Source: an uncultured Planctomycetia bacterium
GTDB taxonomy: Bacteria > Omnitrophota > Gorgyraeia > 1-14-0-20-64-10
Length of the DNA: 26,973 nucleotides
Reading direction: 5' to 3'
Assembly: GCA_964372575.1 (NCBI GenBank)
Contig: CAYJSX010000002.1
Coordinates: 1-26,973, forward strand
The translations under genes were made by a program, and so were the position numbers. Under the pieces are notes generated by a model, which did not search any database, was not told the origin of the DNA, and was given only the letters and a program-made list of their open reading frames with translations. Below, in pieces: positions 699 to 26,973 of this stretch (positions are counted from its first letter, which is position 1; each line of letters starts with the position of its first letter).

Positions 699-704
<6 letters not shown>

Positions 705-764
705 TCCCGCTCGTCATTCCCGCGAAAGCGGGAATCAGATCCTCCGATCAAGTCGAAGGATGAC
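699..764. repeat. dRS3/REP-like composite palindrome (GTCATTCCCGCGAAAGCGGGAATC plus a second hairpin ending GGATGAC) with a 12-bp partial duplicate
   Basis: ATTCCC-N8-GGGAAT at 716-735; hairpin ATCCTCCGA-tcaag-TCGAAGGAT at 739-761; CGTCATTCCCGC at both 699-710 and 712-723. Confidence 0.8.
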
Positions 765-1237
765 GGCTTGGAAGCCGTCACCTCTCGAACCACCCTGTAA
801 ATGACATCTGAGGAGAATCCGCGCCGGCTTAAAAAACCAAAGAGGCGCCTTTTGGCCGCCTCTTTCTCCAATCCCTTCAAGGAAGGCAGGCGCTTGGCGG
901 CCACCGCCTTGGCCATCTCCAGCTCGCTTACGCCCTCTGCGGCCTCTTCCACCGCGGTCGCCGCCACTTCCGGCGCGATTCCCTTGGATTCCAGCTCGGC
1001 CAGAAGCCCCCTGCGCCCGGAGGGCTTGAGCGCTGTCTGCCGGGCGGCGAAGTAGCGGGCAAACTTGGCATCATCCACGAGGCCCTTGGCCTTGAAATCG
1101 GCGAGGAGCAACTCGGCCGTCTCCGCGGAGAAACCTTTCATAAGAAGGCGCTTGCGCAGCTCGGCCTCGGAGCGCGGCCTGAATTTAAGAAGGAGCAGCG
1201 CCTGGGCCCTGGCCCTGGCGAGCAACTCACTCTCCAT
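701..1237 (-). CDS. recX: Regulatory protein RecX
   Basis: [19 protein letters not shown]...GLVDDAKFA...LSRRGFS motifs. Start taken at ATG 1237, overlapping the htrA stop (track start 1285). C-terminus extended by the repeat. Confidence 0.9.
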
Positions 1238-2708
1238 TTTTCGCTCGGATGACCGCGAAGCCCCGGGGGGTTTTGACCAGGGCATCCCCTTCGATCTTCT
1301 TGATCAGCTTCGTGAAATCGTTGAGGGAGCTGATCGGCTGGCGGTTGATCTCCAGGATCACGTCTCCTACCCTCATGCCGGCCTCTTCCCCTGGGGAGGC
1401 CGGCTCCACCTGGGTGACCACCACCCCTTGGGTTTCCCTCACCCGATACCGCCGGGCCAGCTCTTCGGTGATTTCGCTCACCTCCAGCCCTCTCCAGGTT
1501 CCTTCCCCTCGGGCCTCCCAGGAGTCGAGACTCTGGGGGCGCTCTCCCACCTTGACCGAAAGCTCCACGGTTTTTCCGTTGCGGATCACGCCGAGTTTGA
1601 GCTTTTTACCGACCGGAGCCCTGGCCACCTTCTTCAAAAGCTCCCGAACGTCTTTGAGCGGCGCCCCGTCAAGGCGGACGATCACGTCCCCGTCCTGAAG
1701 CCCTCCCTCCTGGGCCGGAGAACCCGGCAGGACCCTGGCCACAATGATCCCTTCCTTGGCGCTTAGGCCAAAGTGCTGGGCCAGCTCTTCGGTCACATCC
1801 TGCACGTTCACACCCAGCCAGCCGTAGAGGATCTTCTTTCCCTCGATCAGGTCCCCCAGGATCGCCTTGGCCGTGTTGCTGGGGATCGCGAAGCCGATGC
1901 CCTGGTAGCCGCCGGTCGTCGAGAAGATCGCCACGTTGACCCCGATCACCTGCCCCTGGAGGTTCACCAGGGGCCCGCCGCTGTTGCCGGGGTTGATCGC
2001 GGCATCGGTCTGGATCAAGTTCGAGTAATCCCTCTCTCCGGAGCGGCCCAGTTGGATCGAGCGGTTCAACGCCGAGATCACCCCCACCGTCACGGTCGGC
2101 TCCGAGCCCCCCACGGCCCAGCCAAAGGGATTGCCCACGGCAACGGCCCAGTGTCCGATCTTGACAGAGTCCGAATCGCCCAGCTCGGCGTGAGGGAGGT
2201 TCTTGGCGTCGATCTTGATCACCGCCAGATCCGAGCGGATGTCAGAGCCCTTGATCTGGCCCTTGAGCTCCCGCCCATCCGGCAGGGTGACCGTCACCTT
2301 GTCGGCGCCGTGGACCACATGCTCGTTGGTCAGGATGTACCCTTCCTCATCGATGATCACCCCGGTGCCCAGGCCCCGCCGCTTGAACTCCCGGTCCATC
2401 GGCTCATCCCCGAAGAAATCCCGGAAGAAGCGCTCAAAGAGGTCCTCCTCAAAATCAGAGAAGGGGCTGTGTCTCCCAAAGGGATGGCGGCGAATCCGGA
2501 CCCGTTCGGTGACCTCCGTCGAGATCGAGACGACCGCCGGCCCCACCTTTTTTGCCACCTCCACAAACCGCCCCTGAAGCTGCTCGGCCGCATCCAGCGG
2601 CGCCGCCTCCGGCACGGCGGGCGTCTGGGCCGCCGCCGGAGAGCCGACGCCCAACCCGAAGGCCGCCGCAGCCACCATAATCAAAATAAGACCATTCTTC
2701 CGCACCAT
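1227..2708 (-). CDS. htrA: DegP/DegQ (HtrA-family) serine protease with two PDZ domains
   Basis: Signal peptide; GLGTGVII..LTNEHVV, SDLAVIKI and DAAINPGNSGGPL catalytic motifs; two PDZ-like segments. ATG 2708 is preceded by AAGGAG. Confidence 0.92.
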   Translation of the reverse strand: MVRKNGLILIMVAAAAFGLGVGSPAAAQTPAVPEAAPLDAAEQLQGRFVEVAKKVGPAVVSISTEVTERVRIRRHPFGRHSPFSDFEEDLFERFFRDFFGDEPMDREFKRRGLGTGVIIDEEGYILTNEHVVHGADKVTVTLPDGRELKGQIKGSDIRSDLAVIKIDAKNLPHAELGDSDSVKIGHWAVAVGNPFGWAVGGSEPTVTVGVISALNRSIQLGRSGERDYSNLIQTDAAINPGNSGGPLVNLQGQVIGVNVAIFSTTGGYQGIGFAIPSNTAKAILGDLIEGKKILYGWLGVNVQDVTEELAQHFGLSAKEGIIVARVLPGSPAQEGGLQDGDVIVRLDGAPLKDVRELLKKVARAPVGKKLKLGVIRNGKTVELSVKVGERPQSLDSWEARGEGTWRGLEVSEITEELARRYRVRETQGVVVTQVEPASPGEEAGMRVGDVILEINRQPISSLNDFTKLIKKIEGDALVKTPRGFAVIRAKNGE

Positions 2709-2814
2709 GTCGTTACGCTCCTTGGAGTGAAACAGCGCCCGGTCCGCCAAAGTTCTGTGGCGGACGGACGCTGTGAGGATAGCCAACCCGTTAAAATCTA
2801 AAGCTTAGGGTAAG

Positions 2815-3927
2815 CTACGAACCTGCCGCAGGATGAGCCATCACGGTCTCGCGCAGCTTCGATTCCAGCTCGGAAAAGAGTTTTGGATTTTCCTTCAAAA
2901 AAGCGCGGGCATTCTCCCGCCCCTGGCCCAGCTTCACCTCGCCGTAGGTGAGCCACGTCCCGGTCTTCTGCAAAGTACCGGTCTGGGTTCCCACATCAAT
3001 CAGGTCGCCCGATCGGGAGATCCCCTCGTCCCACATGATGTCGAACTCCGCCTGCCTGAAGGGGGGAGCCACCTTGTTCTTCACCACCCGAACCCGGACG
3101 TGAGAGCCGACCACCTCATCGCCCCGCTTGATGTGCTCAATCCGGCGGATGTCCAGCCGCACCGAGCAATAGAATTTGAGCGCCCTGCCCCCTGGCGTCG
3201 TCTCGGGGTTCCCGTAGAAAACCCCGATCTTTTCCCGAAGCTGATTGATGAAGACGAGCGACGTCTTCGACTTGGAGATCGCCCCGGTGAGCTTGCGCAT
3301 CGCCTGCGACATGAGCCGCGCCTGCAGCCCCACTTGGGCCTGCCCCATCTCCCCCTCGATCTCCGCCTTGGGGACGAGGGCGGCCACCGAGTCCACCACC
3401 ACCAGATCAATCGCATTGGAGCGGATGAGCATCTCGGCGATCTCCAAGGCCTGCTCGCCGGTGTCCGGCTGGCTGATCAGAAGCTCATCCAGATCCACCC
3501 CGATCTTCTTGGCGTAGCCCGGGTCAAAGGCGTGCTCGGCGTCAATGAAGGCGGCCACCCCGCCCCCCCGCTGGGTCTCGGCGATCACCGAAAGGGTGAG
3601 GGTCGTCTTGCCGGAAGACTCCGGCCCGAAGATCTCCACCACCCTGCCCCGCGGGATCCCCCCCACCCCCAGGGCCATATCGAGCGACAAGGAGCCGGTC
3701 GGCAGGGCCGGAACCGGCACCACCGCGTCGCCCCCCAGCTTCATGATCGAGCCCTTGCCGAACTGGCGCTCGATCTGCGCCAACGTCAACTCCAGGGTCT
3801 TCACCCGCCCCGCACGCCTCTCCTCAACCGATTTTGAGGCAGAGTCAGAGGCAACAGGCGCGTGTGTCTCTTTGGTTTCTGCCTTGGCTTTGGTTCGCGG
3901 CATGGCCTTTGTCTCTAAGGTGCCCAT
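2815..3927 (-). CDS. recA: Recombinase A
   Basis: [11 protein letters not shown], Walker [44 protein letters not shown] upstream of ATG 3927. Confidence 0.99.
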
Positions 3928-3962
3928 TATACCCCCTCCTTTTTAGGTTGGCAAGATCCCCC

Positions 3963-3991
3963 ATCTTACCCCAGGCAAGCATATTTGTCAA
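3963..3991 (-). promoter_or_regulatory. Sigma70-type recA promoter
   Basis: Minus strand TTGACA (3991-3986), 17 nt, TAAGAT (3968-3963), with an AT-rich tract upstream. Confidence 0.75.
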
Positions 3992-4041
3992 TAGATAAAA
4001 TAATTTATTATTAGATTAATACCGGAGCCAACCACAACTGC

Positions 4042-4716
4042 CTAGCTGGTAAGATCTTTAGAGAGTTCTTTTCTCCACCGATCAAAGAAGCCCGACAACT
4101 CCTGAAAGGGAACAGGCTGAAGAAGCATCAGCAATTCTGGTGCGTCCCTTTGGAAGGTTTTGATCCTTTCAAAAGCCACCCCCAGCCAATAGAGGTCAAA
4201 ACCAGGATCCTTCTTCTTTGCCCTCTCGATCAATTCCTCGGGCCGAAAGTGCCCCCCCTGAATCAGCGCGTAGATGTCGATGAAATCCCTAAGGGTGGCT
4301 CGACCGAATAAAGCCAGAAACTTACCGGCAGCCAGGTCCTCGAGATTCTCGACCCTTAAGTTGGGGTACCCTGGAAAGACAACGGTGGATTTAAATCGAA
4401 AAGGGGCATCTTGTGCCAAGTGGATCAGGGTGGTCTCTTTTCCCTTTTGGACCGTCAGTTCGACGAACGAACGAAATCCCCTTTGGCGCTGAACCTCCAT
4501 TCCATCATCGGTTCTCAGCCTCTCCTCTAACCGGCGAGAGAACGGGTCAATGAGTTCCTCCGCCGCCGTAAAGAAATCGAGGTCGTTGCTCCTGCGGTGC
4601 TTCAGATAGAACAGGGATAGGGCAGTTCCCCCTACCAGATAGAACTGTTCGCTCTCCGGCACCTTGGGAAACCTCCGGAGGACCGTCTCTTGGGCGTCAT
4701 TAATGATCTGCAACAA
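4042..4716 (-). CDS. AbiEii-like nucleotidyltransferase toxin (copy 1)
   Basis: FYLVGGTALSLFYLKHRRSNDLDFF (GGTA..R.S.D.D motif) and C-terminal K..A...R...RDFID. Confidence 0.85.
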   Translation of the reverse strand: MLQIINDAQETVLRRFPKVPESEQFYLVGGTALSLFYLKHRRSNDLDFFTAAEELIDPFSRRLEERLRTDDGMEVQRQRGFRSFVELTVQKGKETTLIHLAQDAPFRFKSTVVFPGYPNLRVENLEDLAAGKFLALFGRATLRDFIDIYALIQGGHFRPEELIERAKKKDPGFDLYWLGVAFERIKTFQRDAPELLMLLQPVPFQELSGFFDRWRKELSKDLTS

Positions 4717-4966
4717 AATCCTCCCAGAACCTTCTCACCTCGTCGGGAAGAAAGGGCTTCACCCTCTGGAGCGACCCCTCCAACTTTCTCCAGGGAACCG
4801 TTTTTAAGAGCTGTCTCACGTCTTCTGATCCGCCTCGGGTAGTCACCTGTTGAACGTACCCATCCAGCGTGGAGGGCTCCGACAAATCGAGCCGGAGGCC
4901 TTCCCTGAGGAACCAAAATAAGCGCCGATCGGGCGCGATCTTGCACTCTGACAGGGGCTTTTTCAT
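4700..4966 (-). CDS. Small putative antitoxin (DUF6922-like) upstream of toxin 1
   Basis: LFWF...YVQQVTTRGGSEDV...RRFWEDF pattern, similar to 5820..6050. Overlaps the toxin start. ATG 4966 preferred over track start 4984. Family name is from recall, not a search. Confidence 0.7.
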   Translation of the reverse strand: MKKPLSECKIAPDRRLFWFLREGLRLDLSEPSTLDGYVQQVTTRGGSEDVRQLLKTVPWRKLEGSLQRVKPFLPDEVRRFWEDFVADH

Positions 4967-5004
4967 CGATTTTAAGTCTACCACAAAGCTGTCCGCAAAA
5001 AGGA

Positions 5005-5029
5005 AGGCTTACCGCGGGTTACTGACGGC
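5005..5029. repeat. 25-bp direct repeat, copy A (AGGCTTACCGCGGG-N5-GACGGC)
   Basis: 20/25 identical to 5136-5160, including a 14-bp exact core. Confidence 0.75.
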
Positions 5030-5074
5030 GGATAAGGCGGTCTAACCGGCTGAAGCGGTGGATCGCGTTGGAAT

Positions 5075-5112
5075 TACGCGAGGATGAGGCTCTTTAAGGC
5101 CTCGTAGACCTG
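5075..5112 (-). pseudogene. Orphan 3'-end remnant (QVYEALKSLILA*) of the GLEE-linker gene
   Basis: 5078-5112 matches 6162-6196 at 34/35 nt. No start codon; in-frame stops just upstream. Confidence 0.75.
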
Positions 5113-5135
5113 GGGAACGTTCTGTTAGTCGTTTG

Positions 5136-5160
5136 AGGCTTACCGCGGGGTCTCGACGGC
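5136..5160. repeat. 25-bp direct repeat, copy B
   Basis: AGGCTTACCGCGGG-gtctc-GACGGC; matches 5005-5029. Confidence 0.75.
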
Positions 5161-5172
5161 CACGAGGCCTGT

Positions 5173-5817
5173 CTATCCCTGCATGAGCCAAGAAATCTGA
5201 CCTTCGAAGAACTCCACGAGCTGCTCGATGGCCACCGGTTTAATCATCCGAGGGAGTATTTTGACCTCGGTTATCCTCGAGAAGGCCTGAGCCAACCAAT
5301 AATTGTCCAGGCCCAGATGCTTTTCTTTCGCTCGAGGAAGAAGAACCGGTAGGGGATACAACTCCTGGTGAATAAAATACACGTCGACAAAATCCTTAGG
5401 GTCTGACCGGTCGTAAAGGGCAGACAGTTTGTTGCAGGCGATATCCAGGGCGCTGTCCATCCACAGCGCCCATTCCGGACGTTGAACCTTGGCCTCCAGA
5501 CGGTAGGGGCTGGCCAGCGCAAAGTCCATCTCAATCCTCTCTTCCTTTCGATTCACCAGGAAGCACTCCAAGAAGCTTCCCGTGGTTCGCGTGAAGGAAA
5601 CCGTGGCCTGCATCTGTTTGGCCAACTCCTGTACGACAGGCGGCACACGGGAAACGGCTTGAGGATCGTCGGTAAAGAAATCCAGATCATCCGAATACCT
5701 GTGGTGAAGGTAAAAGGCGGACAGGGCCGTGCCGCCCGTGAGATAAAAGTCGTCCCGAAGAGGAGTCTCAGCGAGTTGGGCAAGGAGTTGGCGCTGGAAA
5801 GGGGTGAGGATTTCGAT
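5173..5817 (-). CDS. AbiEii-like nucleotidyltransferase toxin (copy 2), canonical start codon absent (ATC)
   Basis: The frame of the track ORF 5173..5646 stays open upstream: (I)EILTPFQRQLLAQLAETPLRDDFYLTGGTALSAFYLHHRYSDDLDFF. No ATG/GTG/TTG lies between the in-frame TGA in the antitoxin gene and GTG 5646. Confidence 0.8.
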   Translation of the reverse strand: MEILTPFQRQLLAQLAETPLRDDFYLTGGTALSAFYLHHRYSDDLDFFTDDPQAVSRVPPVVQELAKQMQATVSFTRTTGSFLECFLVNRKEERIEMDFALASPYRLEAKVQRPEWALWMDSALDIACNKLSALYDRSDPKDFVDVYFIHQELYPLPVLLPRAKEKHLGLDNYWLAQAFSRITEVKILPRMIKPVAIEQLVEFFEGQISWLMQG

Positions 5818-5819
5818 GG

Positions 5820-6050
5820 CTAGGCGGCCCGGTCAAGCAGGGCGAAATAGGTATCCCAAAAAGAGCGTATTTTTTTCGGCAGGACAAGGGCAGGCAGGGC
5901 CTGCCGGATACTCTCTAGGCCGATGGCCTGTACATCCGAAAGGGTCCCTCGGGTAAGAACACGGCCCAGGTACCAGCGCTTGACCGCTTCCTCTTGCAAG
6001 TCGGCATCAGAGAGATCGTAATCCCACACCAACCGCCGGTTAATCTCCAC
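5820..6050 (-). CDS. Small putative antitoxin (DUF6922-like) upstream of toxin 2
   Basis: LVWDYDL...WYLGRVLTRGTLSDV...IRSFW; SD-like GGGGAGGGG before the GTG. Confidence 0.75.
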   Translation of the reverse strand: MEINRRLVWDYDLSDADLQEEAVKRWYLGRVLTRGTLSDVQAIGLESIRQALPALVLPKKIRSFWDTYFALLDRAA

Positions 6051-6067
6051 CGCCCCTCCCCGCCTTA

Positions 6068-6076
6068 ATTATACCA
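6068..6076 (-). promoter_or_regulatory. Extended -10 promoter of TA pair 2
   Basis: Minus strand TGG-TATAAT, 17 nt upstream of GTG 6050. Confidence 0.6.
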
Positions 6077-6095
6077 TCCAGAGCTGACCTCTGTA

Positions 6096-6159
6096 AGAGA
6101 ACGCTTCTTAAAAGGACACTTCTCTCCAGAGAGAAGTGTCCCAGAGAGAAGCGGTCTCT
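6096..6159. repeat. 64-bp nested palindromic element, copy 1
   Basis: Identical to 9805-9868. Inner 13-bp perfect stem at 6114-6141; outer 13-bp arms with 1 mismatch. Overlaps the TAG of the upstream gene. Confidence 0.92.
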
Positions 6160-6700
6160 AAGCGAAGATGAGGCTCTTTAAGGCCTCGTAGACCTGATCG
6201 AGAGGTTTCCCTTGAAGCCCCAGGTAGGGCGTGGGGATGACGGGGTAGGTTGAGGCCCCAGAGGCCACCGCCTGCACGATCACCACCGGCAGGGCTCCAA
6301 GAGGAAGGGACTCGTTTGGATTGCTCTCTGGGTGACGCTTGACTTCAACAACCCGAAAGTCCTGATAAAGCTGCCGCGTTACGTCTGAGATGAAATCGAC
6401 CTGCAGGTCAATCCCTTCGGGCAATCCCAGCCTCTCCCGAAGCGCCAGCCCCAGGCCCACAAACCCTGGGCCAAAGACCTCCCCGACTCGACCCAGATCA
6501 TCCGGGTCCAGCAGTTTCTCATCAATGAGAACGGCCAAGTTGGCGGCAGAGCCCTTCGCTAGCTCGCCGTAGAAATCCCTCAAAGCTTCCATTCGGTCAT
6601 CGCCACCAATGGCGTTGGCCACCAAGCTCTCCACCTCCTCCAGGCCGGCGGGCTTGGAGGGTGCTGGCCCCTCGGTACCCGGTACCGCTGTCGCCCGCAC
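6158..6700 (-). CDS. C-terminal part (AGLEE linker plus ~158-aa terminal domain) of the frameshifted modular protein
   Basis: Begins with a Pro-rich linker and AGLEE like those in 6580..8439. The frame is open upstream to about 6827. Confidence 0.65.
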   Translation of the reverse strand: MRATAVPGTEGPAPSKPAGLEEVESLVANAIGGDDRMEALRDFYGELAKGSAANLAVLIDEKLLDPDDLGRVGEVFGPGFVGLGLALRERLGLPEGIDLQVDFISDVTRQLYQDFRVVEVKRHPESNPNESLPLGALPVVIVQAVASGASTYPVIPTPYLGLQGKPLDQVYEALKSLIFA

Positions 6701-8439
6701 CTCGGAGCGGACCAGAGGAAGAGGTAAGTGAAATCCACGAGGTGTAGTCTGATAACGTCCAGTTCTTGCCGCATGCCACGCACTGAGTTGCCCGGCTGCT
6801 GCGATTCCAAGGCAGTAACCTTTGCCCTATTCTGATTAATCATCCACAGATTCTCGAAAACCAAATCTTCTAGAACATTAAATGTGAGAACTTGTTGAAA
6901 AGCCTTCTCGCTATCTACGAATGCCTGACCTCGTTTATAAACAATGCGGTCTTCAAACTCGATACCAGAGACAAAGTTTGAGCCAGGACTGTTTCTATTG
7001 AAAGTCTCGAACTCTTCCACGCCCTCATCAAATGCTTTGATCGCTGCCTCTGGTGTCAATGCGACATTAGCCTTATGAAGCTCGGGTTGTTCTCCCCTAG
7101 TCCTGATAACAGCCCATCGCAAGGTCTGATTAGAATCAATTTCTCCTACAAACTTTTTACGCTCCTCTCCTTGTAACTTCCCACGAAGGTATTTTTGAAT
7201 TTCATCTAACCTCTTTTCCTGAGTCTCGCGGATCGTTTCCTCCAGCCCGGAGGGCTTGGGCGGGGTAGGAGTAGAACCTTGAGGAAAATCTGTAGGGGTT
7301 GCTCTAGAAATGCTGCGAAGATAAATACCTATATCGAGCCCTTCAAGCCAGATGACGGGGAAGTGTGGGAGGTTGCTAATGTCGCGAATCTTTCCCGCAT
7401 TTGTACGCGCTTCTCCCGTTATTGGATCCTTCCACGTAATCTGAATTTCTACTCCTTGCTGCATCCAACTCCTATAGGGCTCTGCTGCGCCTTGACCTAA
7501 TTCTCTCAATCCAGCTAGGTTTTTCAACGTCGAAAGGGCTGAAAGTACTGCAAGCTTGTTGTAACCAAATCCCTTTCGAGCCTCACCCTCCTTTTCCCAG
7601 TGTTCCAAGCGTTCGATAATCGGTTTAATGAAACGGATGATGTCTTGCCTGAAACGAATGGTCCCCTTCTCAACTTGGAAAACGAAGGAAGCTCTGTCGT
7701 GGTACGAATAATACTCAGGTAAAGACGTATCCAACCGAACTAAGGTTAGGGCAACCTCATAGCGAAGATCCCTTAACCCACGATGCTCTTCGGAGACCCG
7801 ATCCAAATCAATCTCGGCTGGAGGTACGTACGAGGACAAGTAGCTCCCTTCGACCATTGGCTTACCAAGTAGCCCGAGGATCGTTCTATAGGTTTCTTCC
7901 TGTTGGCCAAAGAGGAGGTCGTAATAGAGCTGCCCTTCGTCCCTCTGCTCATCAGGACGCACCCTCTGTAAGATTTCGGTATCCAGTCGCCAAAGGACAT
8001 GGATCGCTCTAGCGCGGTTCCTTTCCCCAATCTTTTCCTGGCCCACCGAATCATCGGGTAGATTTGCCGTAATCAGGGCAGCGAGGGTACGATCGAATCC
8101 TCTATCGCGTTGACGTAGGATTTCATCGACCTGAGCTTTGAAGTCGTAGCCTACCAGAGCGGGGTCTGGGAACTTCTCCTCCAGGCCGGCCCCTCGACTG
8201 GGCTCAGGGCGAACGGGTGCCAAGGGGCCAGGGGGAACAGGGGGAACAACTTGTGCAAGGCGGCCGATGGCATCGATGGCCTCATCGGGATTGCCGGAGA
8301 GGAGGGCTTCTTCCAGACCGGAGCGTTGCTTCCCTGTTTCAAGCTGGTTCTGGCGCAAGGCAAGGGCGGGGCTGGGCGCGGCGAGGCTGACGCTTAGAAA
8401 AACAGCAAGTAATCGGGGGACGATCGGGTACAGTTTCAT
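6580..8439 (-). CDS. Putative secreted modular hypothetical protein with repeated [AS]GLEE linkers (N-terminal part; probable -1 frameshift near 6700-6740)
   Basis: Signal-peptide-like MKLYPIVPRLLAVFLSVSLAAPSPALA from ATG 8439. GLEE motifs at 8308-8322, 8176-8190 and 7237-7251. No recognised family. Confidence 0.7.
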   Translation of the reverse strand: MKLYPIVPRLLAVFLSVSLAAPSPALALRQNQLETGKQRSGLEEALLSGNPDEAIDAIGRLAQVVPPVPPGPLAPVRPEPSRGAGLEEKFPDPALVGYDFKAQVDEILRQRDRGFDRTLAALITANLPDDSVGQEKIGERNRARAIHVLWRLDTEILQRVRPDEQRDEGQLYYDLLFGQQEETYRTILGLLGKPMVEGSYLSSYVPPAEIDLDRVSEEHRGLRDLRYEVALTLVRLDTSLPEYYSYHDRASFVFQVEKGTIRFRQDIIRFIKPIIERLEHWEKEGEARKGFGYNKLAVLSALSTLKNLAGLRELGQGAAEPYRSWMQQGVEIQITWKDPITGEARTNAGKIRDISNLPHFPVIWLEGLDIGIYLRSISRATPTDFPQGSTPTPPKPSGLEETIRETQEKRLDEIQKYLRGKLQGEERKKFVGEIDSNQTLRWAVIRTRGEQPELHKANVALTPEAAIKAFDEGVEEFETFNRNSPGSNFVSGIEFEDRIVYKRGQAFVDSEKAFQQVLTFNVLEDLVFENLWMINQNRAKVTALESQQPGNSVRGMRQELDVIRLHLVDFTYLFLWSAPRCGRQRYRVPRGQHPPSPPAWRRWRAWWPTPLVAMTEWKL

Positions 8440-8567
8440 TTTCTCACTTGATACCCTAAATCTACCTGATCTTTTTAAAAAAGTCAATACCTAAAATAAA
8501 AAAGATTGTAACTCATTTAAATTTATAAGCTTATGTTGATAAAATCTCAATTACGTTTTACAGAAAT

Positions 8568-8954
8568 TCACGTGGGGTACAACGAAAGGTCTGGGTAAGG
8601 GTAGTCTCTTTGGTTGTAGGTGATAAGGGTCAATCGATGCTGGAGCGCGGTGGCAGCGATCACGGCGTCCACCCACTCTCGAGGGTTTTCTCGGCGGCTG
8701 GAGGCCCGAAGCAAATCTGCCGCCAGACGGGCAATGACCGAATCTACAGAGATCGTGTCCATGGCTTCAAGGAGTATCGCCGTTTTTCGGGTTTCGGAAG
8801 GCTTTGCCCCCGCCCAAACTTCCAGGAGAGATAAGCTTGAACAGGCAAGGGGTTCTGCCGTCTGCTCGGTCAGTCGATCGAGCAAAGAAACGGTATCTTG
8901 CCGATTCCTGAGGACCCAGATCAGGACGTCGGAATCAACCAGGTATCTAGCCAT
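8568..8954 (-). CDS. vapC: PIN-domain (VapC-family) toxin
   Basis: YLVDSDVLI...SLLEVWAG...DAVIAATALQHRLTLITYN..DY acidic PIN motifs. Confidence 0.9.
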   Translation of the reverse strand: MARYLVDSDVLIWVLRNRQDTVSLLDRLTEQTAEPLACSSLSLLEVWAGAKPSETRKTAILLEAMDTISVDSVIARLAADLLRASSRRENPREWVDAVIAATALQHRLTLITYNQRDYPYPDLSLYPT

Positions 8955-9192
8955 GGCGCCTAAGGCGCGCCCGGAAACGGGCGAGGTAGCGGTTCACATC
9001 GGCTTGGGTCTTTAGGTCGGGGTGGTTCTTGTCTGTCCACCCCCCGGCAGCCTCATGGAGCGCCCGCTGGAATTTAAGGGCATGCAACCTGGTCTGGACC
9101 GCCAGGGCAATGAAGTGACTGCGCTTGCGGCTGGGTACAACTTCTTTGAGCTCCCTGGCCAGGTCGTCTGGCAGAACGATTTGGGTCTTCAT
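8947..9192 (-). CDS. VapB-type antitoxin (ribbon-helix-helix-like N-terminus)
   Basis: 81 aa, overlaps the vapC start; MKTQIVLPDDLARELKE..RSHFIALAV; strong SD GGAGGAG. Confidence 0.75.
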   Translation of the reverse strand: MKTQIVLPDDLARELKEVVPSRKRSHFIALAVQTRLHALKFQRALHEAAGGWTDKNHPDLKTQADVNRYLARFRARLRRHG

Positions 9193-9210
9193 CTTTATCT
9201 CCTCCTATCA

Positions 9211-9244
9211 ATACAAGTATATCTACGCTTGTATGGCTTGTCAA
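9211..9244 (-). promoter_or_regulatory. vapBC sigma70 promoter with overlapping inverted-repeat operator
   Basis: TTGACA (9244-9239), 17 nt, TATACT (9221-9216). Inverted repeat ATACAAG (9211-9217) / CTTGTAT (9228-9234). Confidence 0.75.
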
Positions 9245-9266
9245 GTAGCAGATCTTCTGCTATAAA
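9238..9266 (+). promoter_or_regulatory. Candidate cinA-thpR promoter
   Basis: TTGTCA (9238-9243), 17 nt, TATAAA (9261-9266). Palindrome TAGCAGA-tct-TCTGCTA at 9246-9262. Confidence 0.6.
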
Positions 9267-9375
9267 AGTTCCATGACCCCGCCCCTCCCGACCAAGGCAA
9301 TCTCGACGTCAGCCTATCTGCAGAAGTTGAGCATTCGAATATGAGATTACGATGGCTAAGGGCAGGAGGGGCGGG

Positions 9376-10677
9376 GTGAACGCTGAGATTGTGGCGGTAG
9401 GGACTGAGCTGCTGCTGGGCTTCGTGACCAACAGCGACACGGTTTACCTGTCCCGGGTGCTGGCCGGGCTGGGGATTGATTGCTTCCACCATGTGACGGT
9501 TGGGGACAACCAGCAGCGGCTGGGCCAGGCGCTGAAAACAGCCCTGGGGCGGGCCGACCTCGTCATCACCTGCGGCGGCTTGGGCCCCACGGTGGATGAC
9601 ATCACCCTGGAGACGATCGCCTCGGTCACTGGCCGTCCCCTTGGGCTCAATCGCAAGCTCCTTCGGCAGGTCCAGGCCCGCTTCAGCCGCCAGGGAATCC
9701 GGATGCCCAGGTCCAACATCCGCCAGGCGACGATCCCCAAGGGAGCCGTCGTCTTCCCCAACTCGGTCGGCACCGCGCCGGGGTTCCTACTCACCCTTCA
9801 TAAGAGAGAACGCTTCTTAAAAGGACACTTCTCTCCAGAGAGAAGTGTCCCAGAGAGAAGCGGTCTCTTGGTTTGTCTGCCGGGGCCGCCGGCTGAGCTG
9901 ATCCCGATGGTGGAGCGGTACCTCATCCCCCGCTTGAGGCGCTGCGCTGGCAAGACGGTGATCAGCTCCAGGACTCTCAAGGTCACCGGCCTGACCGAAT
10001 CCGAGGTGGACGTTAAGGTCCTGGACATTCTGGCCTTAAAAGGGAAGGCCACCGTTGGCATCTACGCCCATCCAGGCCAGATTGACTTGAGGATCACGGC
10101 CAAGGCCCCTTCCCTGGCGTCCGCCCAACGGTTGATCGGTCGGGTGGAGGCCAAGATCCGGCAGCGGCTTAAGACGCTGATCTTTGGGGCCGATGGGGAG
10201 ACGCTGGAGGGGGTGGTGGGCCGCCTATTAAGGAAGAAGGGCCTGACGCTGGCGGCGGCTGAATCGTGCACAGGGGGGCTGATCCAGCACCGGATCACAG
10301 AGGTGCCGGGCTCTTCCGATTACTTTCGTGGAGGGGTGGTGGCCTACGCCAATGAGCTGAAAGCTCACGGCCTGGGGGTCTCGCCCGCCCTGCTGGCGCG
10401 ATTTGGGGCGGTGAGCGGCCCGGTGGCTCGGGCCATGGCCGAAGGCATTCGAAGGCTGGCGCAATCTGACCTGGGACTTTCGGTCACCGGCATCGCCGGA
10501 CCGACCGGCGGCACCAAGAAAAAGCCGGTGGGGTTGGTTTACATAGCGCTGGCTACGCCGAAGCAAACGAAGGGATATCGCTTTCGATTCACTGGAGACC
10601 GCTCCACCATCAAGTTCAAGGCCTCGCAGGCGGCGTTGGATCTGATGAGGAACTACCTTGAAGGGGTGCCAGGATAA
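9376..10677 (+). CDS. cinA: Competence/damage-inducible protein CinA (MoCF-biosynthesis-like plus PncC/NMN deamidase domains)
   Basis: AEIVAVGTELLLG, TVGDN, GGLGPTVDDIT, LPGPP, AAESCTGGLI, TGIAGPTGG. GTG 9376 follows AGGAGG. Confidence 0.93.
   Translation: MNAEIVAVGTELLLGFVTNSDTVYLSRVLAGLGIDCFHHVTVGDNQQRLGQALKTALGRADLVITCGGLGPTVDDITLETIASVTGRPLGLNRKLLRQVQARFSRQGIRMPRSNIRQATIPKGAVVFPNSVGTAPGFLLTLHKRERFLKGHFSPERSVPERSGLLVCLPGPPAELIPMVERYLIPRLRRCAGKTVISSRTLKVTGLTESEVDVKVLDILALKGKATVGIYAHPGQIDLRITAKAPSLASAQRLIGRVEAKIRQRLKTLIFGADGETLEGVVGRLLRKKGLTLAAAESCTGGLIQHRITEVPGSSDYFRGGVVAYANELKAHGLGVSPALLARFGAVSGPVARAMAEGIRRLAQSDLGLSVTGIAGPTGGTKKKPVGLVYIALATPKQTKGYRFRFTGDRSTIKFKASQAALDLMRNYLEGVPG
9805..9868. 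repeat. 64-bp nested palindromic element, copy 2, in frame inside cinA
   Basis: Identical to 6096-6159; encodes RERFLKGHFSPERSVPERSGL. Confidence 0.92.
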
Positions 10678-10713
10678 ATCCTGGCACCCATAGACGGATA
10701 AATCCTGGCACCC
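10660..10713. repeat. GGTGCCAGG-ataaat-CCTGGCACC palindrome plus an 18-bp half copy at the cinA/thpR junction
   Basis: 10660-10690 is identical (31 bp) to 16964-16994; 10696-10713 repeats 10672-10689; supplies the cinA TAA. Confidence 0.9.
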
Positions 10714-10723
10714 GGTAGGAGCT

Positions 10724-11332: not shown

Positions 11333-11379
11333 CGTGGTCAGCGAGGTCGTGAGTGAAGTAGTGTGAGCAAGAGTGTCCC
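11321..11379. repeat. GGGACACTCT..AGAGTGTCCC inverted repeat spanning the thpR stop and next start
   Basis: Perfect 10-bp arms at 11321-11330 and 11370-11379, same GGACAC/GTGTCC core as the 64-bp element, followed by T5. Confidence 0.65.
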
Positions 11380-15362: not shown

Positions 15363-15370
15363 GACTTTGG

Positions 15371-17337: not shown

Positions 17338-17344
17338 TTTCTTT

Positions 17345-17383
17345 AGCTTAAAGCTTACCGCTTACAGCTTATGGCTTACGGCT
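17345..17383. repeat. 7-bp tandem array filling the rodZ-rimO gap
   Basis: AGCTTAA AGCTTAC CGCTTAC AGCTTAT GGCTTAC GGCT; contains the rodZ TAA. Confidence 0.85.
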
Positions 17384-20418: not shown

Positions 20419-20422
20419 CCTC

Positions 20423-22798
20423 TTAAGCGGGACGCTCCCACTGGCGTTCCCGGAATCCGCTGCGGCCGCTGGCCGAAGGGGATCGGCGAGGCGGGCCTGC
20501 CCGCCCTGCGCCTCCCAGGGCAGGCGGGCGGCGAGATTCCCCTCCAGGGTAGTGGCGCTCTCGCGGCCACCGGCCAGGGTCTGCGCCGCCAGTATGACGC
20601 CGGGGGTAATCGTCTCCTGCGCGGGGCGGCCGCTCCGGGCCTCTGCGTGGAGGCACCGGAGGTGTGCCCGGCGGCAAGAGGGCCTGCTTGTGGCTTAAGT
20701 TGATTCGGCCCATCGAGTCGATCTCCACCACCTTGACGGCCAAGGTGTCTCCCAACTTGACCACATCCTCCACCTTGGGTACAAACTGATCGGAGAGCTC
20801 TGAAACGTGGCAGAGCCCCTCTTTGCCGGGCGAGATCTCGCAGAAGGCGCCGAAGTTGGTGATCCTTTTCACCACCCCCTGGTAGACCTTCCCGATCTCG
20901 GCCTCCGCGGTCAACCCCTTGATCATGCCGACGGCCTTCTCCGAGGCATGCCGATCGGCCGAGGCCACGAGGACGGTTCCATCGTCCTCCACCTCAATGG
21001 TGGCCCCAGACTCCTTGGTGATCCTCCGGATCATCTTGCCGCCTGGGCCAATCAGCTCGCCGATCTTCTCCGGGTCAATCTTCAAGATGGTGATCCGCGG
21101 CGCGTAGGGAGAAAGCTCTGGCCGGGGGGCCGGAAGGGCGGCTCGGATCCGTTCCAAGACCTGCGCCCGGCCCGACTTCGACTGTTCAATCGCTTCTCTC
21201 AAGAGATCCACCTTCACCCCTGAAAGCTTCAGGTCGAGCTGCAGCGCGGTGATCCCCTTGGAGGTTCCGGTGATCTTGAAATCCATGTCGCCGAAGTGGT
21301 CTTCCATGCCGATGATGTCGGTCAGGATCGCGTAGCGATCCCCCTCCTTCACCAGGCCCATCGCGATTCCAACCACCGGCTCCTTGATGGGGACGCCGGC
21401 ATCCATCAAGGCCAGGGTACCGCCGCAAACCGTGGCCATCGAAGAGGAGCCGTTCGATTCCAAAATCTCGGAGACCACCCGAACGGTATAAGGAAAGGCC
21501 TCCTTGGAGGGCATCACCGCCTTCAGGGCCCGCTCGGCCAAGGCCCCGTGGCCGATCTCCCGCCGGCCAGGTCCCCGAACCGGACGGATCTCTCCCACCG
21601 AGAAGGGAGGAAAGCTGTAGTGCAGCATGAACGACTTGTACGTCTTTCCCGCAAGGGCGTCGATCATCTGCTCATCGGAAGAGGTGCCCAGCGTGGCGGC
21701 GGCCAGAGACTGCGTTTGGCCGCGGGTAAAGAGCCCGGAGCCGTGGGTTCTGGGCAGAATCCCCACGTCGCAGGTAATGGGGCGCACCGTCGTGAAATCC
21801 CGCCCATCGACGCGCCGGCGCTCTGTGAGGACCATCTCGCGCATCAGGCTTCGCTCCAGGGTCTCCAGCGCCTCCTCCACAGCCGCCTTGGTGATGGCCG
21901 GCTCGCCCGGCGCGGTCGCCGCCGCCTTAGGGGCCGCCGGAGAAAGCTCCTTCAAGATCTCCTCGGAGATCGCCCGCATCTCCTCGCCCCCCTGTTCCTT
22001 CTCCACCTGAGAGCGTATCAGCTCTTCCATCCTGTCCTTCGCCAGACGGCGGACCTCTTCCAGCAGTTTGGAATCCAAGGTGGCCTCAGGGAATTCCTGC
22101 CTTTGGAATCCGGCCTTGGCCAAGAGCTCTTCCTGAAGGCGAATCGAGGCCTGACCCTCCTGCTGGCCGAAGCGCATCGCCTCCACGACCACCTCTTCTG
22201 GAACCTCCTTGGCGATGGCTTCCACCATCACGATCCCTTCGGGGTTGGAAACCACCACGAGGTCCAAGTCTCCCTGTTCCAGCTCAGCATAGGTAGGGTT
22301 GAGCACGAAGGTGCCGTTTACCCAGCCCACCCGAGCCGCCCCCAGTCGGGGGGCGACCGGAGCCCCGGCCAGCCCCAGGGCGGTGGAGGCCCCCAGGATC
22401 GCCAGGATGTCGGGGTCGTTGGCCCCATCGTGAGAGAGAACCAGGGCCATCACCTGTACCTCGTTCCTGAAGCCCTTGGGAAAGAGGGGCCGAATCGGCC
22501 GGTCCACCAGGCGCGCGGTGAGGATCTCCTTCTCGGAGGGGCGCCCTTCCCTCTTGAAGAAGCCGCCCGGGATCTTGCCGGCGGCGTAGGTCTTCTCTTG
22601 ATACTCGACGGTAAGCGGCAGAAAGTTCTTCTCCGGCTTGGGCTCCTTGGCGATCACCACAGAAACCAGGACCACCGTACCGCCGTACTGAACCATGCAG
22701 GCCCCATCGGCCTGCTTGGCCAAGCGGCCAGTTTCTAAAACAAGTTCTTCCTTGCCGTAGGCGCACGAAACGCGCCGCACGTTCTCTTGAACGCTCAC
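20423..22798 (-). CDS. pnp: Polyribonucleotide nucleotidyltransferase
   Basis: ETGRLAKQADG, FFKREGRPSEKEILTARLVDRPIRPLF, RTHGSGLFTRGQTQ, GDMDFK, KH and S1 domains. Confidence 0.98.
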   Translation of the reverse strand: MSVQENVRRVSCAYGKEELVLETGRLAKQADGACMVQYGGTVVLVSVVIAKEPKPEKNFLPLTVEYQEKTYAAGKIPGGFFKREGRPSEKEILTARLVDRPIRPLFPKGFRNEVQVMALVLSHDGANDPDILAILGASTALGLAGAPVAPRLGAARVGWVNGTFVLNPTYAELEQGDLDLVVVSNPEGIVMVEAIAKEVPEEVVVEAMRFGQQEGQASIRLQEELLAKAGFQRQEFPEATLDSKLLEEVRRLAKDRMEELIRSQVEKEQGGEEMRAISEEILKELSPAAPKAAATAPGEPAITKAAVEEALETLERSLMREMVLTERRRVDGRDFTTVRPITCDVGILPRTHGSGLFTRGQTQSLAAATLGTSSDEQMIDALAGKTYKSFMLHYSFPPFSVGEIRPVRGPGRREIGHGALAERALKAVMPSKEAFPYTVRVVSEILESNGSSSMATVCGGTLALMDAGVPIKEPVVGIAMGLVKEGDRYAILTDIIGMEDHFGDMDFKITGTSKGITALQLDLKLSGVKVDLLREAIEQSKSGRAQVLERIRAALPAPRPELSPYAPRITILKIDPEKIGELIGPGGKMIRRITKESGATIEVEDDGTVLVASADRHASEKAVGMIKGLTAEAEIGKVYQGVVKRITNFGAFCEISPGKEGLCHVSELSDQFVPKVEDVVKLGDTLAVKVVEIDSMGRINLSHKQALLPPGTPPVPPRRGPERPPRAGDDYPRRHTGGADPGRWPRERHYPGGESRRPPALGGAGRAGPPRRSPSASGRSGFRERQWERPA

Positions 22799-22827
22799 AA
22801 CTTGCCTCCTTCCAGATGGGTAGAGCC

Positions 22828-22856
22828 TTAAGGATTCTCGGGGAGTGGAATCTTAA
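22828..22856. promoter_or_regulatory. Hairpin in the rpsO-pnp intergenic region
   Basis: TTAAG(G)ATTC..GAATCTTAA stem with a one-base bulge, directly after the rpsO stop. Confidence 0.45.
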
Positions 22857-23126
22857 CTATTTTCGGAGATTCAGACGTTCGATCAGCTTCTGGTATTTTC
22901 CCTTGTCGGAAAGCTTCAGGTATTCCAGAAGCTTTCGACGTTGGCTGACCAGCTTCAGCAACCCTCGGCGGGAATGGTGGTCCTTCCGATGCTCTTTGAA
23001 GTGATCGGTTAGAAGATTGATCCGGTCGGTCAAAAGGGCTATCTGAACAGGCGCCGACCCGGTATCCGTTGAGTGCATCTGAAAGTCTTGGATGCGTTTT
23101 TGCTTTTGAACCGTAACAACTTCCAT
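22857..23126 (-). CDS. rpsO: 30S ribosomal protein S15
   Basis: [50 protein letters not shown]; ATG 23126 gives 89 aa. Confidence 0.97.
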
Positions 23127-23151
23127 CGTCCTGCCTTCTATGGGAATAACT

Positions 23152-24129
23152 TTACCACGCTTTAGGCGGCGATGTCCACACCTTTGAGGCTCGGCGTGCA
23201 TCCTGCGCCAGCTGGCGGACCAGCGCCTGGGCCGAAGGGAACCGCCGCTCAGCCCTCAGCCGCCTCAGGAAGGTCACCACCATCTTCCGGCCGTAGAGGG
23301 AGCCCTTGGCGCCAAACAGATGCACCTCCAGCGAAGTTTTCAACAATTGGTGCCAGGCACCATCTGTTGATAACTTCTTTATCCTTTTGAAAGTGGGCCT
23401 TATCCCCACGTTCGCCATGCCAGCGTATGCTCGTCTGCCCATCCTGGCCAAAACCGCGTAGACCCCCCGCAGCGGCAAGACGCCGGCCTCCACCTTCAGG
23501 TTGGCAGTCGGAAATCCAAGCCCTTTACCCCTGCCTGAGCCGCGCACCACTTCTCCTTCCACCGTGACAGGCCTGCCCAGAAATAGACTCGCCCTGCGCA
23601 AATCGCCCTGGGCAATCAGGCCTCGGATCCGGTGGGAAGCGATCCGCTCCCCTCTCACCCGCACCGGAGGCACCACATGGATCTTGAAGCTAAATCGCCT
23701 TCCCAATTCGCGCAGGGTTTCAATTGTGCCGGAGCGTCCTACCCCGAACCCGAAGTCGTGCCCCACCACCACCTCCCGGACGCCAAGCCCCTTGCCGAGA
23801 TAGCACTCCACGAACGACTCGGGACTCAAACGGGAAAAGGCCCTGTTGAACGGGATCACGAGGGCCGCCCGGATTCCCAGGTTGGCAAAGGCCTCCAAGC
23901 GCCCACGGAGCGACAGAAGCATCTGCGGCAACAGCTGAGGCGCCAGCACCGCCAGCGGGTGCGGATAAAAGGTGACGGCAACCGGTGTGCCCCGAATGGC
24001 TCGAGCCCGCAGGAGTGCCCGCTTCAAGATCGCCTGGTGGCCCCGGTGAACGCCGTCAAAGATCCCGATGGCCGCCACCAGCTTGCGCCACCGTGGGGGA
24101 CGGCTGGGCAGCCGGCGAAGAATTTTCAT
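23152..24129 (-). CDS. ribF: Bifunctional riboflavin kinase/FAD synthetase
   Basis: [52 protein letters not shown]. Confidence 0.97.
23333..23377. repeat. 45-bp hairpin with GGTGCC-a-GGCACC core, in frame in ribF
   Basis: GAAGTT-t-TCAACA-at-TGGTGCC-a-GGCACCA-tc-TGTTGA-t-AACTTC; encodes [15 protein letters not shown]. Confidence 0.75.
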
Positions 24130-24782: not shown

Positions 24783-24791
24783 ACTTTATGG

Positions 24792-24815
24792 GGTGCCAGG
24801 ATTAATCCTGGCACC
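24792..24815. repeat. Perfect 24-bp palindrome GGTGCCAGGATTAATCCTGGCACC
   Basis: Fully self-complementary; supplies the nrnA TAA at 24804-24802. Confidence 0.9.
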
Positions 24816-26162: not shown

Positions 26163-26190
26163 TTCATCCTCAAGATCAAACGCTCCTGTT

Positions 26191-26472
26191 TCAGAACAGT
26201 TCAATGGAATAATCGGTCAGTTCCAGATCCCGCTGCCGGCGGGAGGCCTCCACCATCCGGTTGAGGAGGCTGTCCACGCTGGCCCGGTCAACCGCCACAC
26301 AGGCGGCCGCCAGGGTGCTGACCTGCCACTTGTCATGCTCATCCGCCTCGCAGACAGAGACGTTGAACTTACTTCTCAATCTCGTTTTGAACCCCAGCAG
26401 GACCTGGCGCTTGGCCTTGAGCGATTGCGCCTCAGGGATGCGAAGCTTCAACTGAAGTAGCCCAATGGTCAT
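26191..26472 (-). CDS. DUF503 (YlxP-like) protein
   Basis: AQSLKAKRQVL..LRSKFNVSVCEADEHDKWQ; usual position just upstream of rbfA. Confidence 0.88.
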   Translation of the reverse strand: MTIGLLQLKLRIPEAQSLKAKRQVLLGFKTRLRSKFNVSVCEADEHDKWQVSTLAAACVAVDRASVDSLLNRMVEASRRQRDLELTDYSIELF

Positions 26473-26480
26473 AGAAAAAC

Positions 26481-26511
26481 AGTTAAGAGTTAAAAGTGGA
26501 GAGTGAAGAAT
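26481..26511. repeat. 7-bp tandem array downstream of the four-helix-bundle gene
   Basis: AGTTAAG AGTTAAA AGTGGAG AGTGAAG AAT. Confidence 0.85.
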
Positions 26512-26897
26512 TAATCTCCATCTTGTGCTATGCCCTTCTTGGAGCTAAGCAAAATGGAAGATAAGATCTTGATGAGCTGTTGAGTTTCATCAAACAGGTC
26601 ACCCAGCTTCTCCCCCTTTACAACCTCGGACGCCTCAATAAGACGAAGCCAGTAGAGAGTTTCAAGAACTTCTTTGTACGCGATCGTCATTCGAGCGATG
26701 AAATCCGCTCTACTCTGCGCCCCCTGAGCCTCATGGATGTTCGCTCCGATCGAAGTTCCCGAGCGGAGGACCTGCTGGCCTAGGACTCGACCGGCGCTGT
26801 CCTCTTCCAACTCCCTGTACAACTGGATGATACGAAGCGAATAGCTGATGCTTCGCTCGGCAATATCCGGTTTCTTGACTTCTGCCGGATTTTTCAT
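26511..26897 (-). CDS. Four helix bundle protein (23S rRNA intervening-sequence protein family)
   Basis: DIAERSISYSLRIIQLY..QQVLRSGTSIGANIHEAQGAQSRADFIARMTIAYKE..ETLYWLRLI. Confidence 0.92.
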   Translation of the reverse strand: MKNPAEVKKPDIAERSISYSLRIIQLYRELEEDSAGRVLGQQVLRSGTSIGANIHEAQGAQSRADFIARMTIAYKEVLETLYWLRLIEASEVVKGEKLGDLFDETQQLIKILSSILLSSKKGIAQDGD

Positions 26898-26973
26898 TCT
26901 TCACTCTTAACTCTTAACTTTTCACTCTTAACTCTTAACTTTTCACTCTTAACTCTTAACTTTTCACTCTTAA
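26896..26973. repeat. 7-bp tandem array (at least 10 units, 21-bp super-period) upstream of the four-helix-bundle gene, truncated by the window end
   Basis: CTTCACT CTTAACT CTTAACT, then (TTTCACT CTTAACT CTTAACT)x2, TTTCACT CTTAA; reverse complement of the 26481 array family. Confidence 0.95.

Follow-up and report, generated by a model that had tools for sequence, protein, structure and literature searches.

The window considered here, by which we mean the whole 26,973-nt stretch of DNA that was analysed, is contig C2 of the metagenome-assembled genome (MAG) G000, of which 1.50 Mb were recovered in 225 contigs (60% G+C, 80.7% estimated completeness). When its RecA was searched against named genomes, the best match was an Omnitrophota MAG (64% identity), and the host lineage is probably Omnitrophota. 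According to Pfam, the genes of the window are, in order, alaS, recX, htrA, recA, two AbiEii toxin modules, the unassigned pair orf635/orf180, a PIN gene, cinA, thpR, a gene for a YfhO-like membrane protein (yfhO), a PMT_2 glycosyltransferase gene, pgpA, pgsA, rimO, rodZ, ftsK, pnp, rpsO, ribF, truB, nrnA, rbfA, a DUF503 gene and a PF05635 gene. Short palindromic repeats lie inside several of them and over their junctions, and we consider it likely, with a probability of about 0.75, that the window is the local footprint of several very small, non-autonomous families of mobile hairpins of the repetitive extragenic palindrome (REP)/REPIN type. At least two superfamilies of these repeats have a cognate gene elsewhere in the genome for a HUH tyrosine transposase that resembles REP-associated tyrosine transposases (RAYTs).

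The repeats exceed chance: the window has 32 perfect hairpins (stem of at least 9, loop of at most 10), whereas 100 dinucleotide shuffles gave 2.25 on average and 7 at most. A scan of the window against Rfam gave zero family matches. Self-BLAST of the genome revealed at least 10 families of at least 10 copies each, and nhmmer combined with self-BLAST located about 300 loci in nine families, 280 of them scorable. Since repeats cover 1.48% of the window and on average 1.44% of the genome, the window is typical of its genome and no hotspot. The analysis confirmed about 14 elements in it, belonging to at least six types; an earlier note on this DNA had counted about 17 inserts of at least five types, a number slightly too high. 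It had also taken the elements to be mutually unrelated. Several families do occur at once, but families 0 and 2 have the core GGTGCCAGG in common, and the 64-nt element of cinA and the palindrome at the thpR/yfhO junction are built on one architecture.

The confirmed and probable elements inside genes are the following (here and below, a strand is named where one was assigned):

9802-9873: family 4 copy in cinA, in frame, encoding RERFLKGHFSPERSVPERSG
11114-11168, plus strand: family 7 copy in thpR, a 45-nt unit made of the hairpin TGGCTGCGGCT-AAAGGA-GGCCGCACCA plus a tail
13315-13347: family 0 hairpin in the YfhO-like gene, loop TTTAAAA, in frame, giving RVPGLKPGT
16099-16146, minus strand: 16-aa insert in rimO, DSPPHPSPFTPDRLYL, of GGGTGAA/GGGTAAA heptamer character
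16963-16996: family 0 hairpin in rimO, in frame, exactly 27 nt giving GARIYPGTP
23330-23380: family 2 element in ribF, AAGTTTTCAACAATT-GGTGCCAGGCACC-ATCTGTTGATAACTT, in frame
8173-8217: family-1-like hairpin in orf635, CCCGTTCGCCCTGAGCCCAGTCGAGGGG, translated as PVRPEPSRGAG

Each gene was aligned pairwise with its orthologue in G001, a genome of the same genus (93% complete) that is syntenic with the window across its conserved genes, and 19-30 further relatives were compared. The family 4 copy of cinA falls in a loop of the MoCF domain between GTAPGFLL and LLVxLPGPP; the 64-nt element is missing from G001, the net gain is 18 aa, and the peptide spanning the insert reads HKRERFLKGHFSPER. The family 7 copy of thpR lies in frame immediately behind the second HxTxG motif. 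It contributes (RV)AAAKGGRTTNPSW(RV), an insertion of exactly 15 aa (45 nt) missing in G001 and in all 17 aligned orthologues. At its hairpin, the YfhO-like protein exceeds the two G011 paralogues by 9 aa; in G001 the same position is occupied by another insert, of 14 aa. In rimO, the element at 16963-16996 brings 6 aa net relative to G001. The 44-nt element of ribF adds 4 aa relative to G001, in a loop of the flavokinase domain that is variable anyway and holds other inserts in relatives. Because of these alignments, a check that had been named beforehand, the segments in cinA, thpR, rimO, ribF and the YfhO-like gene are regarded as true insertions. In all the listed host genes the Pfam domains are complete and the alignment with orthologues runs over the entire length, which agrees with the statement of the earlier note that every affected gene is intact.

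Two segments are less firmly placed. The second rimO insert (16099-16146) is not in G001, two relatives have other inserts there, and BLAST puts it in no repeat family; GGGTGAAGGGTG occurs exactly 7 times in the genome and 38 times with one mismatch (both strands), and the segment is probably a heptamer array. Thus, of the two rimO inserts proposed earlier, one is a family element and the other an insert relative to G001 of probable heptamer nature. The orf635 hairpin is a probable insert candidate: its k-mer count in the genome reaches 22, partly owing to the adjacent CTCCTCCAGGCCGGC (AGLEE) motif, and peptides related to its own occur in other open reading frames (ORFs; family 1).

Three other proposed inserts were rejected. 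In yfhO, 13430-13444 is native coding sequence (VPGT, against VPGG/IPGP in relatives) with no change in length, which leaves 13315-13347 as the insert of the two that had been claimed. In thpR, 10915-10941 is likewise the native PFT coding sequence according to the ortholog alignment, and the inserts that stand are 11114-11168 and, at the end of the gene, 11304-11395. The insert claimed in the glycosyltransferase gene is only a 7-aa indel relative to G001 and not a repeat.

Mapping the inserts on predicted structures, which had also been suggested, placed them in low-confidence loops. In AlphaFold2 models computed from small alignments, ThpR has a mean pLDDT of 87.9 and CinA one of 83.6. Within these otherwise confident models, confidence drops internally only at the inserts: at residues 137-149 of ThpR and at residues 156-167 of CinA, which have a pLDDT below 50 and lie between the predicted strands 144-149 and 171-176.

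The same loops carry inserts in other genera, so that the phenomenon belongs to the whole family of genomes and not to G000 alone. The cinA loop (GTAPGFLL to LLVALPGPP) contains an insert in 12 of 20 genomes, with at least four element types and peptides such as LRQAQGER. At least eight relatives have other inserts in the rimO loop of 16963-16996, and repeated use as in cinA was seen at the rimO loop before RFFV, at the rimO TRAM linker and at two ribF loops (19 relatives). A relative of the 45-nt thpR unit is present in cinA and rodZ of G015. An artefact of assembly or binning of a fragmented MAG might be suspected, given 225 contigs, 80.7% completeness and many repeats at contig ends. Yet the inserts are contig-internal, in frame and flanked by syntenic genes, and the same phenomenon occurs in independently assembled relatives, which makes such an artefact hardly credible.

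A second group of elements occupies gene junctions and stop codons:

699-788: composite palindrome at the recX tail and alaS start, with a partial copy, a full CGTC-tagged REP and a second hairpin
6092-6162: family 4 copy at the 3' end of orf180, a 64-nt nested palindrome of two inverted half-elements covering the stop codon (6158-6160)
10657-10691: family 0 hairpin at the cinA stop, GGGTGCCAGG-ATAAAT-CCTGGCACCC, with the loop TAA as stop codon (GGA TAA; ..EGVPG*)
10692-10714: shortened second family 0 copy in the cinA-thpR spacer (68% identity in the alignment of 10684-10714, and k-mer profile)
11304-11395: RAYT-B-type doublet at the thpR stop and yfhO start, GGGGACGCTCCATTTGGGGACACTC, spacer, GAGTGTCCCTTTTTAGAGCGTCCCC, an inverted repeat
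17345-17383: heptamer array of the GCTTACC type in the rodZ-rimO spacer, including the rodZ stop codon
24785-24817: family 0 hairpin at the nrnA/truB junction, loop ATTAAT, with TAA as the nrnA stop (GAT TAA; ..PRCQD*)

In the recX/alaS composite, the CGTC-tagged REP CGTCATTCCCGCGAAAGCGGGAAT lies at 712-735 and the second hairpin at 761-780. The composite accounts for the final ~25 aa of RecX (194 residues, with Pfam domains ending at residue 166) and provides both the recX stop and the alaS start, which overlap (TCAT, 701-704). The RecX tail is also found in G001, and an 11-aa peptide of this element recurs as a ribF insert in three relatives. The left half of the thpR/yfhO doublet provides the C-terminus of ThpR (QGTLHLGTL*) with its stop, and the right half overlaps the yfhO start; the left half is at the same place in G001, read in another frame (APGDDP*). 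Being common to G001, the recX/alaS composite and the thpR 3' half-element appear to be old. At other junctions G001 has overlapping genes: cinA/thpR and rodZ/rimO overlap there without a spacer, and nrnA/truB overlap as TGATG with no hairpin. The repeat elements claimed at recX/alaS, rodZ, ribF and nrnA were thus all recovered, as were both of those in cinA, namely the family 4 copy (9802-9873) and the family 0 stop hairpin (10657-10691).

Many copies are recent, as indicated by the identity of the 64-nt copies at 6092-6162 and 9805-9868, that of the 31-nt copies at 16963-16996 and 10660-10690, and a burst of family 2 in G000. Copies of family 2 number 36 in G000 but only 3 in G001, and the count is 0 in 29 other relatives. 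The family 0 stem has 50 copies in G000, 0-33 in genomes of the same family and order (9 in G001) and 0 in other families of the class, and each lineage has its own dominant family 0 loop. Family 4 is represented by 21 loci genome-wide. These observations bear on the idea that the segments arose in place, through slippage, template switching or gene conversion and with no mobile unit. Slippage can expand heptamer arrays and tandem 45-nt units, net length changes differ from element lengths, and the CGCGT found at both ends of the thpR family 7 copy is a microhomology, though it is part of the tandem unit. Such an origin is nevertheless very improbable, for unrelated genes hold copies identical over 64 nt and 31 nt, conserved ends are common to dozens of dispersed copies, and the elements are missing at orthologous sites of G001.

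Some further features of the repeat families may be mentioned. The family 7 unit consists of a 10-11 bp bulged hairpin and an 18-nt tail and is often in tandem (C218:2147, C14:11700, C40:2746, C37:3059-3100, C160:901-994 and window 11114-11168). In many contigs of G000, 13-nt core pairs GGGGTCTGACCCC-N4-8-GGGGTCAGACCCC (or a GGTGCC version) are flanked by A and T runs and resemble bidirectional intrinsic terminators built from REP cores (for example C18:3245-3275, C68:2572-2605 and C140:3442-3475). Family 3 comprises 38 segments, 24 of them at contig ends, of a repeat of ~90-230 nt (GCTGGGGCTGGCCGCGTACGGCGAACCCC...), and probably belongs to some larger repeat or mobile element that did not assemble.

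No transposase was found in the window by a Pfam search of its proteins, in line with the earlier claim that no mobilising enzyme is present there. The genome holds two genes that pass the Pfam cut-off for PF01797, both with HxH and Y motifs, and the best NCBIfam match of both products is NF047646, REP-associated tyrosine transposase (63.9 and 56.5 bits):

C30:8908-9531: RAYT-A, with family 2 on both sides (8868-8910 and 9588-9630)
C223:131-724: RAYT-B, with the right half of family 4 just past its stop codon

RAYT-A is flanked by its cognate repeats, which belong to the family of the ribF insert and have the core GGTGCCWGGCACC or GGGGTCWGACCCC. Its orthologues in four genera have palindromes of the same kind, on both sides in G015, G006 and G020 and on one side in G007; those in G015 and G006 use both GGTGCCWGGCACC and GGGGTCWGACCCC. 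Family 0 would also be mobilised by RAYT-A. For RAYT-B, the orthologues of nine relatives have inverted bipartite halves on either side, GGGACGCTYC-N4-GGGACAC, and the 64-nt insert in cinA and the palindrome at the thpR/yfhO junction are built in this way too. Neither TnpB (PF07282) nor reverse transcriptase (PF00078) was found in the genome; DDE transposase families were outside the search. The sole GIY-YIG match in the genome lies in a 474-aa ORF that is probably UvrC. The flanks of family 2 show no duplicated or conserved bases beyond its arms, in comparison with a miniature inverted-repeat element of the DDE type, which is marked by terminal inverted repeats and a target-site duplication of fixed length.

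Placement was then compared genome-wide with 300 random placements of the 280 loci, obtained with nhmmer models of nine families. Genes were predicted with our own hexamer-based caller (1,280 genes, 89% coding), which recovers the Pfam-supported genes of the window; given these own gene calls and a fragmented assembly with many repeats at contig ends, the following counts are approximate and probably low. Of these loci, 75 lay at least 30 nt inside an ORF (228 expected), 53 overlapped a stop codon (9.3 expected), 23 overlapped a called start (6.2 expected) and 118 were intergenic (26 expected). Hence about 27% of the copies are inside ORFs, a 3-fold deficit, and about 19% are over stop codons, a 5.7-fold excess. 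Because of this deficit and this excess relative to random placement, the pattern fits near-random insertion followed by purifying selection, which agrees with the genome-wide insertion process filtered by selection that the earlier note had proposed. The comparison of length modulo three was confined to the family with a defined 45-nt unit, the ends of most families being fuzzy and empty sites at the DNA level being absent: family 7, whose unit is a multiple of three, is intragenic at 13 of 19 loci (68%), against 61 of 261 (23%) for the others (Fisher p = 8.6e-5). Host ORFs checked elsewhere in the genome all encode conserved proteins (20/20), among them triosephosphate isomerase, HemC, Der, CysRS, CarB, TrpE, a protein of the EPSP synthase family (PF00275), PdxA, DinB and ATP synthase a. 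One and the same element yields different peptides, with both orientations and several frames in use. By our own gene calls, ~3-6% of genes contain a translated repeat and dozens receive their stop codon from one, which indicates how far selfish hairpin repeats can extend in a small, gene-dense genome.

Under the preferred reading, mobile hairpins would presumably be cut and joined as single-stranded DNA by a transposase, and copies would land more or less anywhere. Since the genome is ~89% coding, with abutting or overlapping genes, most landings would be lethal and removed. Three classes of survivors are expected to remain: copies in short intergenic spacers; copies at junctions or 3' ends that replace a few terminal residues and donate a stop or, occasionally, a start codon; and open-frame copies in tolerant surface loops, where they would be translated into 6-20 disordered residues. 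Two bipartite RAYT-B halves joined without the gene would correspond to the 64-nt family 4 doublet of cinA.

The excess at gene ends could also be read as the mark of functional signals (terminators, mRNA stabilisers, attenuators or protein-binding sites) that are positively selected there, the intragenic copies being incidental. The 5.7-fold enrichment over stop codons goes in this direction, as do the terminator-like T runs after many core dimers, and REPs were reported to lie mostly downstream of ORFs and are thought to be RNA elements (PMC3733652). However, this explanation accounts neither for the linkage of transposases and repeats, nor for the lineage-specific bursts, nor for the in-frame loop copies in more than 20 enzymes. 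Moreover, the copies at cinA/thpR, nrnA/truB and rodZ/rimO would terminate transcription inside probable operons, these genes being co-directional and overlapping in G001. A function would in any case be compatible with mobility, and we consider it unlikely that function is the main explanation.

The repeated use of the same loops invites an adaptive interpretation, in which inserts would be recruited for protein-surface diversity or regulation, or the same loops actively targeted. The cinA loop, with inserts of at least four types in 12 of 20 genomes, favours this, as does the similar reuse of the rimO and ribF loops and of the yfhO site. Nevertheless, the inserts are predicted to be disordered, their peptides vary with frame and orientation, intragenic copies are 3-fold depleted, and a strong filter alone would lead to repeated use of few permissive loops, so that adaptation is quite improbable. 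Somewhat less remote, though still unlikely, is the proposal that loop reuse across genera reflects targeting, by replacement of earlier hairpins or through local DNA structure, and not only the filter of selection. The cases of cinA, rimO, ribF and yfhO come into question, and net gains shorter than the elements would fit replacement. If so, a small set of "landing loops" in core enzymes would be in constant turnover and serve the whole lineage as a source of variation on protein surfaces.

Several observations weigh against the mobile-repeat interpretation favoured here. Of the 75 internal copies, as judged with our own hexamer caller, only 40 lie between two flanks that both score positively for coding. 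A search of metagenome contigs provided no strain-level relative (the best cinA match was 69% identical) and no polymorphic empty site, and no transposition event was seen. Families 0, 2 and 4 are devoid of the GTAG or CGTC tag of classical REPs. Net gains are below element size (a 64-nt element brought +54 nt, one of 27 nt +18 nt), which therefore implies no clean paste, or later deletions; target loss, later deletion or replacement of earlier inserts could explain them. Both RAYT-like proteins score below the 80-bit equivalog cut-off of NF047646, and a contig end cuts the left flank of RAYT-B in G000. No linked transposase was found for family 1, family 7, the CGTC-type REP and the heptamers, which for the CGTC REP agrees with the literature (PMC3733652). 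Finally, no RAYT was found in G001 (93% complete) despite its 9 family 0 and 3 family 2 copies.

Most traits of this system have precedents. Several REP families per genome with family-specific REPtrons, as well as stop codons supplied by REP ends, were already described (Di Nocera, De Gregorio & Rocco 2013, PMC3733652). The same authors reported REPs that fall entirely within ORFs of known proteins ("REP-decorated" proteins) and are most numerous in Opitutus terrae and Rickettsia conorii, the CGTC-type intragenic REPs of the latter being RPE-4 and RPE-6, and in one case different REPs were noticed at about the same site of orthologous recB genes (PMC3733652). The repeats described here resemble REP/REPIN-RAYT systems, or REPtrons (PMC3733652; Bertels & Rainey 2011, PMC3116915), in being short palindromic units or doublets with tens of copies, in several families per genome, with transposase genes that are specific to a repeat and carry it on either side, with ends that supply stop codons and with copies wholly inside ORFs of known proteins. 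One member, the recX/alaS element only, has a CGTC tag. As in REPINs, family 4 consists of two inverted half-elements, and dimers of the GGTGCCWGGCACC core are common. Unlike REPtrons, the main families here are untagged (family 2 arms end at (A)AGTT; families 0 and 4 have no tag), and a high share of copies is inside ORFs (~27%) or over stop codons (~19%) in a small genome (~1.5 Mb recovered).

RAYT-like genes with long flanking terminal inverted repeats (TIRs) were also described (PMC3733652). Like these TIR-flanked tyrosine transposases (TIRYTs; PMC3733652), RAYT-B-type genes are bracketed by long inverted bipartite ends and accompanied by a moderately abundant family of two joined ends (family 4, 21 loci), a likeness of architecture. 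Unlike the full bracket of TIRYTs, only the right end of the RAYT-B bracket is assembled in G000. The system is probably a REP/REPIN-RAYT one with frequent intragenic copies, of a kind already described. To this kind it adds its density in a small genome with several families at once, two pairs of enzyme and repeat that could be followed through several genera, insertions at junctions by which overlapping genes become separated, and the systematic reuse of loops by different families. A literature search found no paper on such palindromic repeats in Omnitrophota.

Rickettsia palindromic elements (RPEs), RPE-1 and others, were reportedly described by Ogata and colleagues in 2000. The parallel drawn earlier with them and with intragenic REPs holds, since in both cases palindromes lie in frame in intact housekeeping genes, in surface-exposed segments (PMC3733652); it is based on architecture and placement. 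Unlike RPEs, the elements here are much shorter (26-64 nt) and of several families at once, many insertions are lineage-specific and recent and not genus-wide, and candidate transposases are present. Very small dispersed repeats and heptanucleotide STRR repeats of cyanobacteria are said to have been reported by Elhai and colleagues in 2008 and by Mazel and colleagues in 1990. These too are repeats of ~20-30 nt and 7-nt tandem arrays, dispersed in the genome and sometimes intragenic.

Specific in-gene inserts can thus be tied to specific transposase genes, which provides testable enzyme-substrate pairs in an uncultured phylum. The reuse of loops across genera shows, as a natural map, where conserved enzymes tolerate insertions. 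For the annotation of Omnitrophota and similar MAGs, such repeats explain odd low-complexity peptides in conserved proteins, as well as assembly breaks.

The heptamer arrays form a separate system tied to genes of PF05635 (23S rRNA intervening sequence protein, a four-helix bundle). In the window, two arrays surround such a gene:

26473-26511: heptamer array on the stop-codon side, AGTTAAG type, inverted relative to 26893-26973
26893-26973: heptamer array on the start-codon side, TTAACTC/TTCACTC, the contig ending within the array

All three PF05635 genes of the genome (window 26473-26973, C197:1100-1900 and C6:1-700) have inverted arrays of their own heptamer on each side (AGTTAAG, GCGAATA and GCTTACC), and this inverted bracketing of a PF05635 gene by each heptamer type is a difference from the cyanobacterial STRR repeats. 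The heptamer of the orphan array between rodZ and rimO is that flanking the PF05635 gene of contig C6. Dispersed orphan arrays of the GCTTACC type amount to 25 exact 13-mers on both strands. A literature search returned nothing relevant linking PF05635 genes to heptamer repeats.

Other differences between the window and G001 concern accessory genes, as G001 lacks the toxin-antitoxin modules and the PF05635 cassette. The recA-cinA interval (window 3928-9351) measures 5.4 kb here and ~3.3 kb in G001, and the extra DNA holds two AbiEii-type toxin modules (one without a normal start), the PIN gene and orf635/orf180. The latter pair carries repeated [AS]GLEE motifs, and its two members have 120 nt in common, read in different frames, and may be one frameshifted gene. 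At the position of the PF05635 cassette, G001 (L147, G001:C5, ~22980-23060) has a tRNA gene, according to a reading by eye, and a protein ending in ..GGLEEE.. upstream of DUF503. Finally, the Arg/Pro/Gly-rich C-terminal tail of pnp (20504-20557) is 18 aa longer than in G001 and matches no repeat family.

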